From a virus (Duplodnaviria; Heunggongvirae; Uroviricota; Caudoviricetes), in IMG/VR virus record IMGVR_UViG_2657244961_000008, positions 1-43,067 of that record: a stretch of DNA of 43,067 nt; one strand, written 5' to 3'. The notes under the pieces were generated by a model. It saw only the letters and a list, made by a program, of their open reading frames with translations, had not been told where the DNA came from and did no database searches. Numbering within the stretch: position 1 is the stretch's first letter; the number at the start of each line of letters is the position of its first letter. Position numbers and translations under genes: made by a program. Below are positions 1-37,338 of this stretch, one piece after another.

Positions 1-582
1 TTACTCTGCAGGTGAAGTCGGCCACTCAATATCAGGTGCAGTTGATGTATCAACACGATTCAACAACACCCGATATGTCTTCCATGCGGCCAGTAACGAT
101 TTCTCCTCCTCCGTCGCAATATCCAAATCTACGGCATCCTGAAGTGGCGCAATATGCTCACTGGCTACCTGCATCAGGCTGTTTTTTGTTTCTTCCGCCT
201 CTCGGATCCGGAACAGTTTTTCTGCTTCTGCATCTTTCACCCAGGCTGTGCCGTTCCACTTCTGAAACTCCCCTTCCGGCGATAACCAGGTAACATTTTC
301 CGCTAACGGACCGAGTTCAGAAATAAATAACGCGTCGCCGGAAGCCACGTCATAGACCGTTTTACCCCGATGGTCTTCAACGAGATGCCACGATGCCTCA
401 TCACTGTTGAAAACAGCCACGAAGCCTGCCGGAATATCTGGTGGTGCAATATCGGTACTGTTTGCTGGCAGACCTGTATGAGGCGGAATATATGCGTCAC
501 CTTCACCAATAAATTCATTAGTTCCGGCCAGCAGATTATAAATTTTTATGGTCCGTGGTTGTTCACTCATTCTGAATGCCAT
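1..582 (-). CDS. tfa: tail fiber assembly protein (Tfa)
   Basis: 193-aa ORF, complete (ATG at 580-582, stop at 1-3). Its start overlaps the stf stop (TAAATG arrangement). Sequence is typical of lambdoid Tfa chaperones. Confidence 0.8.
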
Positions 583-31369: not shown

Positions 31370-31525
31370 TTACTCCTCAGGTTCGTAAGCTGTGAAGACA
31401 GCGACCTCCGTCTGGCCGGTTCGGATTCGTACCTCGCAGAGGTCTTTCCTCGTTACCAGTGCCGTCACTATGACGGTTAAACAGATGACGATCAGGGCGA
31501 TTAACATCGCCTTTTGCTGCTTCAT
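31370..31525 (-). CDS. hokD: Hok-family type I toxin (HokD/RelF-like)
   Basis: Hand translation gives MKQQKAMLIALIVICLTVIVTALVTRKDLCEVRIRTGQTEVAVFTAYEPEE (51 aa), matching E. coli HokD as recalled. Absent from the ORF track because it is under 60 aa. Confidence 0.85.
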   Translation of the reverse strand: MKQQKAMLIALIVICLTVIVTALVTRKDLCEVRIRTGQTEVAVFTAYEPEE

Positions 31526-31815
31526 AGCCTGCTTCTCCTTGACCTTTCGGTCCGTAAGAGGCTAATCTCTATGTGTCGCATAGATATGGCCTCAGATTAA
31601 TGTTAAGCGTCTTGCAGGACGCGTAATGTTAACTGGGGCTTTTCTCTATCTGCCTTTTGGTGTTCATGCCTGAGACAGATAGCCTCAAGCACCCGCTGCA
31701 ATTCTACTTAACTCTCCTTTTCCCGCAAACCGTTTTTATCCCCAGCGGCAAATCGAATACACCACCAGCGCCGCCGCCATTGCAATTCCTGCCGTTGTAA
31801 ATGCCTCAGGCCAGG

Positions 31816-33374: not shown

Positions 33375-34056
33375 TATCGCGATATTTATTCAGCTCCCGC
33401 AGCGCGGCACAGACTCGCTCCCATTTCCTGATATCACTTTTCGCCCTGCGCAGCGCCAGGTTTGCCCTGCGAAGGGACGGAAAAATCAGCTCATCTGCTT
33501 GCGTTTCGGTAAACGATGGCAACGGCTGCACAATGTCCGCCACAGTTTCTGTTTTAATATCTTCCTGTGTTGCAGCTTCCTGTACTGGTAACGCAACACA
33601 TGCAGGCTGAGGAAAGGCTTTACCATCAGTTTCCGCTACCGATGCCGCTTTCGGCTCTGCTGGTAAATTCTCGCCCGGCATGCAGTAACGAAATTTACCG
33701 TTCTGATTAACACGAATCAGACGACCTTTGCTGATTGCCATTGCCAGCGTTGAAGCCACTTTGCGGGATGTTGTACCGAACAGCGTAGCCAGTTCATCCG
33801 CCGTTTGTGGTCCGCGTTGTTCAATCGTCGCGGTTAAATCGCACTCTGAGATTTTCGCTACTGTCGCCGTGGTGGTTTCTTCCGGCTGTTCTTCTGGCGC
33901 TGGCTGTTCCTGCTGAACGTTGTTATCAGCCACACGCCAGGTGTACGCGCTTTTATCAACAAAACCAGCCTTTTTCAGTTCCCACAGCTCGTTCAGTACT
34001 TCTTCACGACTGATATCAAGTCGCGCAGCCAGCTCTACCGACGTGGCTTTTCCCAT
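33331..34056 (-). CDS. hypothetical phage protein with N-terminal winged-helix-like region
   Basis: 241 aa immediately downstream of the DnaC-like gene. Confidence 0.6.
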
Positions 34057-34107
34057 CGCTTTCAGTGCGTCAAAAAACAGTCTCCATAAATTTCCTCCCG
34101 GTAAAAA

Positions 34108-34854
34108 TTACTTTTCAATACCTGGCTGACCAACATTCGGGCGCCAGCTCTCCCAGTTAAAATTCACCCAGCGACCACCGTTCATGGTCATGCGGTCCAT
34201 CACGCGTTCGCCAAGCAGCGTATTCATCGCTGCGTGGTTCAGGTTTGTCAGCATCCCGACGCTGTGCATCGAGGCCGTTCTGCGATCGACTATCTGGTTC
34301 AGTGTGACCTGTTCGTTACGCGTATCCCGCTGCATACCGATTTCATCCAGGATAAGCAGGTCAACTTCACACAACCCCTGCAAAAATTTTTCGCCTGAGT
34401 TTTTGTTGTCGTAGTTGCCGTGTAACGCCAGCATCACATCCGCCACCGTCACCACAATCACGCTGCGACCTTTCGCCAGAAGATGGTTGCCAATGGCTGC
34501 TGCCAGATGATTCTTTCCGGTACCCGGCTTACCGCTGAACACAAAATTCGTGCACCCGGTTATCAGTTCGCCTGCAATGGACTTCGCCTGGCTGAGTGCA
34601 TGACGCTGTCCGTCGTTCTGCACCTGGTAATTCGCAAACGAACATTTCTGGTGCAACGGCTGGATACCGGAACGATTCAGGAATTTTTCCACCCGTAACT
34701 GGCGATTCTGGCGGTTGATCTCCTCGCTACGTTTTCGCCCTTCTGCAAGCTGCCACTCCCGCCACTCGTCCACTGTCCGGTACGCCGCAGTTACATGCTG
34801 CGGGGCCAGCTTACGGATACGCTCAAGAACACCATCTGCCGCAATATTTTTCAT
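34108..34854 (-). CDS. DnaC-like replication helicase loader (IstB-like AAA+ ATPase)
   Basis: 248 aa with Walker A GKPGTGKN and Walker B LLILDEIG. Confidence 0.85.
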   Translation of the reverse strand: MKNIAADGVLERIRKLAPQHVTAAYRTVDEWREWQLAEGRKRSEEINRQNRQLRVEKFLNRSGIQPLHQKCSFANYQVQNDGQRHALSQAKSIAGELITGCTNFVFSGKPGTGKNHLAAAIGNHLLAKGRSVIVVTVADVMLALHGNYDNKNSGEKFLQGLCEVDLLILDEIGMQRDTRNEQVTLNQIVDRRTASMHSVGMLTNLNHAAMNTLLGERVMDRMTMNGGRWVNFNWESWRPNVGQPGIEK

Positions 34855-34860
34855 AGCCCG

Positions 34861-35826
34861 TTACCCCCTGAACCCCGGCGGAATTTCGGTGTCCGGTTCA
34901 GAAATGTGATTCACGCAACGCTGTACAGGCGAACGCCCCAGACGAATAACCAGCTCATCCCATTTTTCGCGAAGCTTTGACGGGCTCATGACGTTTTTTA
35001 CCCAGAATGGATCCCGCTGTACCCGACCAAACATTTCGCAAATTTGTCTGTGAGTTCTGCCATCCAGCATCCGCATTGTGCGCACATCATTGGCCCATGC
35101 AGTCCAGTTTGGTTCTTTCGGTCGCATGATTTCGCCATCATCGCTGGCAGCCTGCTCGTAAAGACTCACGATTCGTCCCCAGATCCACTGCGCACACGCT
35201 AAATCTTCCTGGCTGCCCCACTGGCGTTTTTTCGCACTGAACACAACCGCGTCAGGGTGTCGGTTTAAAAAATCCTGTTCAGCCGTCTGCATGTCCGGTT
35301 GCGAAGCTTCCGGACGAGAAGTTTTTTTATTCTCTGTAGTAATCTCTGTTGTATTCTCTGTAAGATCATCAGGCCATTTTGACCCGATGACATTGGGTCG
35401 TTTTGAACCAATGGAGCGTGCCATTTTGACCTCTTCCATCGTGTCATTTTGACCTGATGGAGCGGCGCATTTTGACCTGATGGATTCGTTCACTTTGCCA
35501 CCATCTAAAAGCTCGCTCTCGTAATTAATCGTGTAAAAATTAGTCATATCACGCTTTGATTTGTTGAGCTTTTCGCAACGCAAAAGCCCCAGCGTTTTCA
35601 GACTTGCAAATGCGCGTTTTAACGTTGACTCTGACCAGAACGGGAACTGTTCCAGCCATTGTTCTGTTGTGTTATAAATCCAGCGAACACCATCACATTC
35701 CATGCCGGAACTGGTATCTCTCAACCAGTAATGCAGCTGCTGCAACACGATGGCTTCGTTCAGACCAATTTTCATCGCCAGCTGCGTGTTTATAACCAGC
35801 GGACGTTCAGCAAAAAGGAGCTTCAT
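34861..35826 (-). CDS. replication initiator (O-like/YdaU-like), containing the putative origin
   Basis: 321 aa directly upstream of the DnaC-like gene. Contains an internal iteron array. Confidence 0.7.
   Translation of the reverse strand: MKLLFAERPLVINTQLAMKIGLNEAIVLQQLHYWLRDTSSGMECDGVRWIYNTTEQWLEQFPFWSESTLKRAFASLKTLGLLRCEKLNKSKRDMTNFYTINYESELLDGGKVNESIRSKCAAPSGQNDTMEEVKMARSIGSKRPNVIGSKWPDDLTENTTEITTENKKTSRPEASQPDMQTAEQDFLNRHPDAVVFSAKKRQWGSQEDLACAQWIWGRIVSLYEQAASDDGEIMRPKEPNWTAWANDVRTMRMLDGRTHRQICEMFGRVQRDPFWVKNVMSPSKLREKWDELVIRLGRSPVQRCVNHISEPDTEIPPGFRG
35375..35500. repeat. iteron array, putative replication origin
   Basis: Five to six direct repeats of CATTTTGACC (with variants CGTTTTGAAC and CACTTTGCCA) at a 23-bp period, starting at 35375, 35399, 35422, 35445, 35468 and 35491. 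Confidence 0.6.
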
Positions 35827-35847
35827 CCCCTCCCCCAGAACACGTTA

Positions 35848-36273
35848 TCAATGCACCACCACGGCATTTCCCGCCGGACCACCACGATTCATCTGATTGA
35901 AACCAGCGATCGCCACTGCGACAAAATCATCAGCGTCTCTCACCAGTCGTTCCCGCATCTCCACCAGCTCCCGAAAATAGGCTGAACTGTGGCTGCGCAT
36001 TCGGGCCACCAGCAAAGGTGGCATTGCCTTTTCGATCGCTGGTAACAACGCCTGAATTTTTTCAACTGCATCAGGGGTGTCTTTCTCTACCCAGCGGAAA
36101 ATTTTCTGGGTATTGCGAGCCAGGGCTTCCGGATGGCTGTCGTCATACAGTTCCGGGAACGTCATTCCCAGCTCGAAATACGCTTTGGTAATTTTCGCAG
36201 CCGGTACTTTTTCGCCGTCCGGATGCGCCCAGGCATTCATCGCCATGCGGATATGTTCATGTTTGATTTTCAT
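35848..36273 (-). CDS. YdaT-like protein (Rac ydaT family)
   Basis: 141 aa beginning MKIKHEHI, directly downstream of the cro-like gene as in Rac ydaS-ydaT. Confidence 0.55.
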   Translation of the reverse strand: MKIKHEHIRMAMNAWAHPDGEKVPAAKITKAYFELGMTFPELYDDSHPEALARNTQKIFRWVEKDTPDAVEKIQALLPAIEKAMPPLLVARMRSHSSAYFRELVEMRERLVRDADDFVAVAIAGFNQMNRGGPAGNAVVVH

Positions 36274-36497
36274 GAATCACTCTTCCTTTTGTCCCGGGTG
36301 GTATCCTTCTTTTTGTAAAGCTCTGGGTTCAAAGATAATTTTCCCTTGGAGTATGCAGCAGCTTCCGCAGCTCTCCCTTTCGGAACTATTTCACCGGGGC
36401 GCTTACGCCACATGTAAATAGCTTCGCGGGTTATCCCATAAAAATCAGCGACCCTCTGAACAGAGCCAAAAAACTGAACAAGTTCATCAACTCGCAT
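36270..36497 (-). CDS. Cro-like HTH regulator
   Basis: 75 aa with a basic C-terminus, divergent from the repressor gene. AGGAGAG RBS. Confidence 0.7.
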   Translation of the reverse strand: MRVDELVQFFGSVQRVADFYGITREAIYMWRKRPGEIVPKGRAAEAAAYSKGKLSLNPELYKKKDTTRDKRKSDS

Positions 36498-36593
36498 TTC
36501 ACTCTCCTAAAATCTAAGTATTTTTAGATTACAGGATAATTTTTTTTAGGTCAATGCAATCTAAAATAATTTATATTCAACTCGCGGGAGAAA
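36498..36593. promoter_or_regulatory. divergent promoter/operator region between cro-like and repressor genes
   Basis: Inverted repeat AATCTAA-N6-TTAGATT at 36511..36530, with a further AATCTAA at 36558..36564. AT-rich. Confidence 0.55.
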
Positions 36594-37241
36594 ATGATGG
36601 AAAGCCTTGGCATCAGGCTTAAGAAACTCAGAAAAGATAAGGGACTCACCCAAGTAGAACTGGGTAAGCTTTCAGGCGTGACTGGGGTTACTATAGGGTA
36701 CTGGGAGAAAGATCTAAACGAACCCGGCAGCAAAGCTCTAAGTAAGTTAGCCCAGGCATTAGGAACTACTGAGTCCTATCTCCTGTATGGAGTATCGTCT
36801 CCTGAACTATCTTTTGTGCAGAGCAATCCAGGCACCAAGATCCCCTACTTTCCGTGGGGTGACGCGATTTCTTTCCTAATCTTAGAAGGAGAGAAAACAA
36901 TGGGAAATGTCGATAGGATCACCACATTCTTTGATGTAGTGGAAGGTGATTTTGCCGTTTCAATGCCTGATGACACTATGCATAACCCCTCAGGGTCACC
37001 AAGTATCCCGGTTGGTGCCACTGTGATCCTAAGACCAGGAGAGAGTTATAAAAATGGCAGTATCGTCGCTGTAATAGTTCCAGATCCACTTACAAATGAA
37101 CCGTCTATGACTATAAAAAAATTAGTTATTGATGGAAAACTTGTGTATTTAAGCCCTCTCAATCCGCGCTATCAATCATCCTTGCTTACGCCAGAGTGTA
37201 AAATTGTTGCCGTAGCAAAAGGTGTGCAGTTCAACCTATAA
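36594..37241 (+). CDS. CI-like repressor (N-terminal HTH, C-terminal S24 LexA-like peptidase domain)
   Basis: 215 aa. HTH near LTQVELGKLSGVTGVTIGYWE and a C-terminal S24-like domain. Confidence 0.85.
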   Translation: MMESLGIRLKKLRKDKGLTQVELGKLSGVTGVTIGYWEKDLNEPGSKALSKLAQALGTTESYLLYGVSSPELSFVQSNPGTKIPYFPWGDAISFLILEGEKTMGNVDRITTFFDVVEGDFAVSMPDDTMHNPSGSPSIPVGATVILRPGESYKNGSIVAVIVPDPLTNEPSMTIKKLVIDGKLVYLSPLNPRYQSSLLTPECKIVAVAKGVQFNL

Positions 37242-37262
37242 CCCTGCCATGTCCTTGAACTT

Positions 37263-37290
37263 AAGGTCGGTTATGCCGACCTTTTTTTTT
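37263..37290 (+). terminator. intrinsic terminator after the repressor gene
   Basis: Hairpin GGTCGG-TTATG-CCGACC followed by T9. Confidence 0.65.
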
Positions 37291-37309
37291 AAATTAATTT
37301 AGATTCCCC

Positions 37310-37338
37310 TTGACTATAAAACTAAATACTTTTAGATT
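37310..37338 (+). promoter_or_regulatory. pL-like promoter candidate with TTAGATT operator half-sites
   Basis: TTGACT (37310..37315), 17-nt spacer, TAGATT (37333..37338). TTAGATT motifs recur nearby. Confidence 0.35.

Follow-up and report, generated by a model that had tools for sequence, protein, structure and literature searches.

The replication initiator gene of a Caudoviricetes virus, contained in the 43,067-nucleotide (nt) IMG/VR record IMGVR_UViG_2657244961_000008 (positions 1 to 43,067; this whole stretch is called the window below), carries within its coding sequence an array of 23-bp iterons and a tract of 12-mers, which together form a candidate origin of replication. The gene lies on the minus strand and encodes a modular protein with a predicted N-terminal winged-helix domain (N-domain), a linker that would bear the origin, a lambda-O-like C-domain and a DnaT-like tail. 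The features needed for the argument, in window coordinates, are the following.

34861..35826, minus strand: initiator gene, a modular open reading frame (ORF) of 321 amino acids (aa), matching PHROG 391
35512..35826, minus strand: N-domain, about aa 1-105, predicted winged helix, presumed to bind the iterons
35501..35571, minus strand: AT-rich stretch encoding the conserved end of the N-domain (KSKRDMTNFYTINYESELL), with conservation of the codon type
35368..35506, minus strand: iteron array of six abutting 23-bp units, exact and degenerate copies, constrained as DNA
35322..35367, minus strand: 12-mer tract, in gene sense ACAGAGAATACA, ACAGAGATTACT and ACAGAGAATAAA, then an A7 run (35322-35328)
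34945..35388, minus strand: C-terminal half (linker and C-domain), homologous to lambda O residues 135-270
34864..34926, minus strand: C-terminal tail, the last 21 residues (VQRCVNHISEPDTEIPPGFRG), resembling the Escherichia coli DnaT C terminus
34108..34854, minus strand: DnaC-like AAA+ helicase loader of 248 aa, directly downstream of the initiator gene

Read on the plus strand, the iteron core CATTTTGACC occurs exactly four times, at 35375, 35422, 35445 and 35468; a scan of both strands found no exact copy on the minus strand or elsewhere in the 43-kb window, for the whole of which, both strands included, base composition predicts 0.08 exact copies. A fifth copy at 35399 (CGTTTTGAAC) carries two mismatches and a sixth at 35491 (CACTTTGCCA) carries three, the counterpart of the sixth being GGTCAAAGTG in the related loci L003, L015 and L017 and AGTCAAAGTG in others. 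Successive starts lie 24, 23, 23, 23 and 23 bp apart, and four exact plus two degenerate copies at 23/24 bp rule out chance. In gene sense the core reads GGTCAAAATG, and the units run from 35506..35484 (the degenerate one) through 35483..35461, 35460..35438 and 35437..35415 to 35414..35392 (core GTTCAAAACG) and 35390..35368. The first-pass annotation of this DNA had reported five to six repeats inside the gene of the 321-aa initiator at a strict 23-bp period; the count and the location hold, all copies lying within 34861..35826, and the period is kept at four steps but broken by the one 24-bp step, so that it is almost, not strictly, regular.

The iteron consensus across Enterobacterales, tCCATCAGGTCAAAATGAcaCGATGg, is an imperfect palindrome. 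In Trabulsiella guamensis (L018), one unit at about gene nt 410-425 is inverted, with GGTCATTTTGACC replacing GGTCAAAATGACC, an arrangement compatible with a symmetric site for a dimer, in which the central A-tract may point in either direction.

The second repeat consists of three 12-bp copies at 35328-35363, on the plus strand TATTCTCTGTAG, TAATCTCTGTTG and TATTCTCTGTAA, preceded by a T7 run; Tandem Repeats Finder delimits it as 35331-35362 with period 12 and 2.7 copies. Its consensus in gene sense is ACAGAGAWTAC. Three copies of about 12 bp had been noticed before at 35318..35355, correctly in number but some 8-10 bp too far to the left. The order of the elements also needed turning round: all of those described are present, but what was said to follow the iterons, or to lie just upstream of them, is reversed in gene sense, the gene being on the minus strand.

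Both flanks of the array are poor in GC (0.32-0.38 at 35300-35379, the 12-mer flank, and 0.33-0.38 at 35480-35579, the other one). Within the gene, duplex stability is lowest in the 40-mer that begins at 35319 (dG -44.3; regional mean -54.8, standard deviation 4.4; top 0.6% of the window), and a low-stability region, 35319-35367, lies directly 3′ of the last iteron in gene sense.

The repeat region encodes an interdomain linker, and the 12-mers encode a TENT/TEIT peptide repeat in the same frame in 99 of 105 units, as would fit repeats that are a by-product of a low-complexity protein linker, with selection on the peptide and no role of the DNA's own. We determined conservation by codon position in 9 Enterobacterales homologues and, for 56 distinct close alleles taken from viral contigs, the fraction of variable sites by codon position. 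The values for third positions and for first plus second positions, in that order, are as follows.

N-domain: conserved 0.71 and 0.95 in the homologues; variable 0.52 and 0.07 in the alleles
Stretch 35571..35501: conserved 0.76 and 0.98; variable 0.43 and 0.10
Iteron array: conserved 0.88 and 0.90; variable 0.23 and 0.24
12-mer tract: conserved 0.91 and 0.88; variable 0.22 and 0.08
C-domain (alleles only): variable 0.59 and 0.13

Neither repeat class retains the codon periodicity of conservation, and we conclude that selection acts on the iterons and the 12-mers as DNA. The iteron cores start at codon phases 2, 1, 0, 2, 1 and 1, hence in all three frames, and the peptides read from them are unrelated (IRSKC, SGQND, EVKMA, GSKRP and GSKWP). 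For the 12-mers, T-E-x-T units across phyla with different codon usage use ACA in 49 of 51 cases and GAG likewise in 49 of 51, against backgrounds of 0.26-0.32 and 0.36-0.49, whereas in the N-domains of these genes, taken as a control, conserved degenerate residues use their major codon in only 50%. In Bacillus phage TP21-L, moreover, the units are spaced 11, 10 and 12 nt apart and therefore fall in different frames. Reading frames and codon statistics thus led us to reject the peptide repeat as the explanation, largely refuting it for the iterons, and we consider it very improbable that the DNA has no role here.

The same comparison bears on where the duplex would open. An AT-rich stretch at 35500..35570 had been assigned to the origin, and the unwinding region could lie there, with the 12-bp repeat unrelated to it: the GC content of 0.33-0.38 bears out the first-pass description, and the 40-mer at 35522, at dG -45.1, comes close to the instability of the 12-mer side. 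This stretch, however, is found in gene sense on the 5′ side of the iterons, the reverse of the arrangement in lambda, and encodes the conserved N-domain end. Its third positions vary freely while its first and second are 98% conserved, and codon-position conservation in the 9 homologues and the 56 alleles revealed no DNA-level constraint on it. In most relatives its GC content rises to 0.42-0.46, while the 12-mer tract is invariant. We regard an unwinding region in this stretch as improbable. The 12-bp repeat, taken at first for a separate second motif, occupies the position of the lambda AT-rich region and is the more strongly constrained as DNA. Since codon periodicity persists in 35501..35571 and vanishes in the 12-mers, the 12-mer tract is the better candidate for the equivalent of the lambda unwinding region. 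We favour the 12-mer side as the putative unwinding site on conservation, gene position and analogy with lambda, not on stability, and consider it rather likely that opening occurs at the tract. A promoter and terminator scan of 34000-37400 gave counts at chance level.

The gene or parts of it are matched in 3080 of 5426 complete E. coli genomes, in full length in 1846, mostly under the annotation 'hypothetical protein', and strain TUM9757 (NZ_CP128931.1) is 100% identical over the gene. Phages mEp460_ev081, mEp460_4F5, PhiR42_1 and HannyBb, together with Klebsiella phages, have six units in register and an unchanged tract. The loss of the repeats from homologous initiators that still replicate had been named at the outset as the case that would speak against an origin; none of the close homologues examined lacks them. 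The gene is mosaic, with boundaries at about 35328-35330. Klebsiella phages have the N-domain, iterons and tract in common with the window (match 35328-35769), fused to a Phg_2220_C domain. Many E. coli have the C-terminal half alone in common (34861-35330), behind an HTH_36-type N-domain with its own 15-bp repeats TTGACCCGTCAA, as in E. coli 2015C-3101 (L007), where TTGACCCGTCAA at gene nt 347-400 lies in frame and yields the peptide repeat DPS(N/T)(V/I/F). With the initiators of Stx phages, only 40 bp of the tract are held in common, at 97.5% identity. Other initiator types, including those of lambda, Stx1_14040 (with GGGAAACCC at 23 bp) and Rac YdaU, bear their own repeats at the same gene position, and the internal repeats of L007 and of Rac ydaU are likely to be their own origins.

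To follow the N-domain across phyla, its 115 aa were scanned against one genome per species, giving 64 loci. Identity is 54-98% in Enterobacterales and about 45-55% in Bacillaceae, Staphylococcus, Clostridium, Acinetobacter and metagenome-assembled genomes (MAGs) of Bacteroidota, Nitrospirota and Alphaproteobacteria. Behind the N-domain, most of the 64 loci carry 3-7 units similar to GGTCAAAATG, spaced 21-24 bp apart, in Gilliamella, Geobacillus, Anoxybacillus, Staphylococcus and Oceanobacillus as well as Enterobacterales and several MAGs of other phyla. With up to one mismatch allowed, TCAAAATG shows an enrichment of about 10-fold after the N-domain, on the gene strand only, and the iteron consensus is nearly alike in Enterobacterales and Firmicutes. 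The last unit is immediately succeeded by 2-5 copies of (A/C)CAGAGAnTAC, with the first CAGAGA 21-24 nt past the last iteron core; CAGAGA is 26-fold enriched after the iterons (55 loci) and present in at least two copies at 36 of the 55. The cassette also occurs in cultured phages, Staphylococcus phage 96 and Bacillus phage TP21-L, and the N-domain in thousands of E. coli genomes and in phages of Staphylococcus, Bacillus, Listeria, Pseudomonas and Vibrio. Three MAGs labelled Veillonella parvula, Bacillota and Collinsella (L010, L011 and L038) contain the E. coli prophage gene at 95-96% protein identity; they most likely reflect binning contamination, not true hosts.

The tract reaches further than this iteron type. 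An exact scan of viral contigs for CAGAGANTACNACAGAGA found at least 80 loci; among the matches listed, 69 of 80 fall within an ORF of 230 aa or more, 330 nt or further from its start, and these tract-bearing ORFs have an N-domain of the present type or of the Stx1_14040 type and at least three types of C-domain. Single-linkage BLAST clustering unites 63 of these 69 listed ORFs, and hhalign from the N-domain gives E 4e-4 to the Stx1 type over 103 columns and 1.3e-5 to the HTH_36 type. We had considered the Stx1_14040 N-domain to be unrelated and rejected this on the hhalign E value of 4e-4 and the clustering. Because hhalign and clustering join these N-domains, the tract, as judged from sequence comparison, is characteristic of a single broad N-domain superfamily whose iterons vary, rather than of several families without kinship. 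N-domain, iterons and 12-mers are inherited together in Enterobacterales, Bacillaceae, Staphylococcus and further phyla, with interchangeable C-domains.

One reading, which we consider less likely than not, is that the ACAGAGAnTAC repeats are more than an AT-rich patch and form a sequence-specific origin element. It would be conserved across Proteobacteria, Firmicutes and Bacteroidota, lie one iteron period past the last iteron and be common to a broad superfamily of phage initiators with a winged helix, among which iteron specificity, C-domain and helicase partner vary. The 12-mer could be a strand-specific pad, recognized as a single strand by the initiator or by a common host replication protein.

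The mosaic breakpoints at the tract edge (about 35328-35330), the restriction of the similarity with Stx-phage initiators to those 40 bp at 97.5% identity, and the linkage through the tract of N-domain subtypes with at least three C-domain types could all mean that the 12-mers are conserved as a recombination joint for the exchange of phage modules and not for initiation. Recent exchange, however, cannot explain why the tract is kept between Firmicutes and Proteobacteria while the synonymous sites of the adjoining N-domain are randomized, and its constant distance from the last iteron speaks for a structural function. A joint in place of an initiation element is therefore unlikely in our estimation, and the two roles are not exclusive of each other.

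In the protein, PHROG 391, 'replication initiation O-like', matches residues 18-321 (E 1.2e-95; profile positions 13-298 of 298), and no Pfam family matches at E<=0.01. Residues 147-294 align with lambda O 135-270 at 36% identity over 148 aa (BLASTP, E 6e-28), and the C-terminal half is presumed from this homology to be the platform that recruits the helicase loader. The N-domain showed no similarity to that of lambda O by BLASTP, Pfam or hhalign, and its membership in Phage_rep_O (PF04492) was rejected: Pfam gave no hit at E<=0.01, where lambda O itself scores 5.7e-36, and the hhalign probability was 0.05%. The earlier label 'O-like' is thus apt for the C-terminal half but not for the N-domain, which stands outside Phage_rep_O.

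No Pfam or NCBIfam model covers the N-domain, and a search for its homologues returned mainly short fragments lacking names or Pfam domains. Its AlphaFold model (mean pLDDT 85.8) has the order of helices and strands typical of a winged helix, and from this model it is presumed to be the iteron-binding domain. The top Foldseek matches in the Protein Data Bank (PDB) are 4pql (a DNA-binding protein N-terminal domain) and 5kbj (a Rep-DNA complex), at E 2e-3, TM 0.56 and 14-17% identity, with generic winged-helix regulators scoring almost equally; a profile of the domain against PDB sequences gave only a marginal PadR-like match (E 0.075). We take 4pql, 4pt7 and 5kbj to be staphylococcal RepA_N plasmid RepA initiators, whose origin lies within repA.

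The tail peptide, EPDTEIPPGFRG, closes the protein. A phmmer search of the PDB matched the tail to DnaT (2ru8, 6aep and 9zbt), aligned to ...VNTVSEPDSQIPPGFRG, and NCBIfam PRK02854 matched at positions 160-179 (E 0.004); the end of the initiator, VNHISEPDTEIPPGFRG, is near-identical to the E. coli DnaT C terminus VNTVSEPDSQIPPGFRG and likewise to that of Rac YdaU. The downstream gene is matched by NCBIfam PRK12377 (E 3e-146), DnaC PRK07952 (E 9e-94), Pfam IstB_IS21 and PHROG 50, and the initiator tail and the adjoining DnaC-like gene resemble the host dnaT-dnaC gene pair. The sequence likeness suggests that phage initiators and DnaT share a peptide that recruits a loader or helicase.

At three loci with the cassette, phages mEp460_ev081 (L002), mEp460_4F5 (L003) and Klebsiella phage ST147-VIM1phi7.2 (L004), no DnaC-like gene lies downstream, and a Dam methylase or small unknown genes are found there instead. 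Their initiators end in ...IP(P/A)GFR(G/S). With the tail kept and the DnaC-like gene missing, these phages presumably use the host loader, which is compatible with a tail that contacts the host loader or helicase.

A lambda-type origin is supported by layout, DNA constraint, co-inheritance of both repeat classes with the N-domain across phyla, the predicted N-domain fold, and homology of the C-domain and loader. We read the iteron array as the vegetative replication origin of a lambdoid prophage, lying inside its own initiator gene, and would put the probability of this at about 0.78. Iteron binding, 12-mer unwinding, helicase recruitment and origin activity would be expected here by analogy with lambda and iteron plasmids (PMC5043065, PMC7466680). 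Dimers of the N-terminal winged-helix domain would bind the six palindromic 23-bp iterons (core GGTCAAAATG), and the resulting phased protein-DNA array would bend or wrap the DNA. Wrapping, supercoiling and transcription through the gene might then melt the 12-mer tract and A-run (35322..35367), the tract beginning one iteron period past the last iteron. The lambda-O-like C-domain and the DnaT-like tail would bring the phage DnaC-like loader, with host DnaB, onto the opened tract.

Several observations weigh against this interpretation. The start of replication at this site and the inducibility of the prophage are putative. The sixth iteron is degenerate in the window, and the structural matches of the N-domain are weak and typical of any winged helix. 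Duplex stability separates the two flanks poorly (-44.3 versus -45.1), and in the 12-mer tract both AT-richness (GC 0.33-0.42) and strand asymmetry (31 of 49 purines) are no more than moderate, the tract being less extreme than its lambda counterpart. The 12-mer units also keep almost always to one frame (the 99 of 105 given above), and selection on the TExT peptide may contribute to their conservation.

The iterons might, besides, be mainly control sites, for autoregulation, a transcriptional roadblock, titration, or handcuffing and exclusion of related phages, with the origin elsewhere. Plasmid iterons also serve control, cloned lambda origin fragments inhibit phages of the same replication type (PMC3349717, PMC4488673), and the start site is placed here by inference. 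Set against this, the core is found nowhere else in the 43-kb window, the array always adjoins a low-stability tract at a constant distance and has helicase or loader genes beside it, and the lambdoid relatives that have been studied all use such arrays as their origin (PMC7466680, PMC8022706). We therefore consider a mainly regulatory array to be a poor explanation, of low probability, and keep to the origin inside the initiator gene.

Among known origins, that of lambda is close in plan. The first-pass annotation proposed the lambda ori-in-O layout with a different iteron sequence, and this is borne out by palindromic repeats of about 23 bp at the same position in the gene, within the initiator ORF and between the DNA-binding N-terminal domain and the C-domain. 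Lambda has four annotated iterons at gene nt 349-433, spaced 20, 24 and 23, with the AT-rich region next; the present array spans gene nt 327-465, nt 350 being the start of the first good unit, and its 23/24-bp spacing likewise comes to about two turns of the helix. The lambda iteron TCCCTCAAAACGAGGGA and the window's GGTCAAAATGACC (in fuller form ATCCCTCAAAACGAGGGA and ATCAGGTCAAAATGACAC) are both imperfect palindromes with an A-tract centre and have TCAAAAYG in common, a shared centre that may be due to chance. The low-stability region 3′ of the last iteron and the C-domain 36% identical to lambda O complete the likeness. Unlike lambda, the window has six iterons instead of four, three 12-bp repeats as its putative unwinding region, a DnaC/IstB-type AAA+ loader instead of P as the partner, and a DnaT-like tail on the initiator.

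In Stx phages P27 and 933W, the origin comprises six iterons within the O gene and, after them, an AT-rich region (Kozlowska et al. 2020, PMC7466680), and synonymous changes in the iterons of Stx-phage origins abolished plasmid replication (PMC7466680); unlike the window, P27 and 933W have lambda-type O proteins and lambda-type iterons. Stx1_14040 (L006) has the 12-mer tract alone in common with the window, together with GGGAAACCC iterons and a helicase gene downstream. Each lambdoid initiator type, those of lambda, P22 and L among them, carries its own iterons within the coding region (Casjens et al., PMC8022706). In gene 18 of P22 and gene 18 of phage L, the iterons differ from those of the window (L: TGTCCAACGGA) and the partner is a DnaB-type helicase. 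Beyond phages, oriC and RK2 oriV likewise have short tandem repeats, 13-mers, in a low-stability region beside the initiator sites, and their exact sequence in the unwinding region matters (reviewed in PMC5043065); the unit here, the 12-mer ACAGAGAWTAC, has no sequence relation to theirs and lies inside a coding region. The RepA-type initiators 4pql, 4pt7 and 5kbj are the nearest solved folds and combine a DNA-binding N-domain with an exchangeable C-domain, but they belong to a plasmid family, and their resemblance to the N-domain is a weak, structural one that may fall short of homology.

It is textbook knowledge that an origin can lie where a phage initiator gene encodes its linker, and the description of TIGR01714 (TIGRFAMs) reportedly notes low-complexity regions that reflect origin repeats. 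The searchable literature, which excludes most subscription journals, yielded no description of this iteron specificity, of the Pfam-less N-domain, of the cross-phylum cassette or of the sequence-conserved 12-mer tract; the cassette could have been described earlier elsewhere. Of the complete E. coli genomes searched, more than half contain the gene or parts of it, mostly labelled 'hypothetical protein', and the cassette (N-domain, GGTCAAAATG iterons and ACAGAGAWTAC) would offer a simple signature for locating prophage origins. It would also classify lambdoid, staphylococcal and Bacillus phages by replication specificity, and hence by incompatibility and exclusion. The conserved 12-mer tract raises the question of whether an unwinding element needs a specific sequence, and the DnaT-like tail would tie phage initiators to the host dnaT-dnaC pair.

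Upstream of the initiator gene lie three further genes.

35848..36273, minus strand: YdaT-family gene in the cII position (Pfam YdaT_toxin)
36270..36497, minus strand: Cro-like gene (Pfam P22_Cro)
36594..37241, plus strand: divergent cI-like repressor gene (Pfam HTH_3 and Peptidase_S24)

The order Cro-like gene, YdaT-family gene, initiator and DnaC-like loader is that of an early rightward-type lambdoid operon. It recurs in the Rac prophage, whose ydaS-ydaT-ydaU-ydaV genes (oriJ region) likewise comprise a Cro-like gene, a YdaT-family gene, an initiator ending in ...IPPGFRG and a 248-aa DnaC-like loader. The comparison with Rac ydaU that the first-pass annotation had suggested finds its likeness in the tail and the types of neighbouring gene, not in the origin: the YdaU N-domain is DUF1376 (PF07120, 2.7e-26), for which the window protein has no match, and the YdaU repeats are GATGTTCAAACA-like (L005, gene nt 388-445), with no 12-mer tract.

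Elsewhere in the window, a 402-aa ORF (25421..26629, minus strand) abuts an RNA-OUT match (26622-26691, plus strand), and 25421..26691 looks like an IS10-type insertion within the prophage. Rfam matches above the gathering score comprise the sok antitoxin RNA at 31523..31694 (minus strand), the DicF antisense RNA at 38512..38563 (plus strand) and the IS009 RNA family at 41..239 (minus strand), all of them typical cargo of lambdoid or Qin-like prophages.

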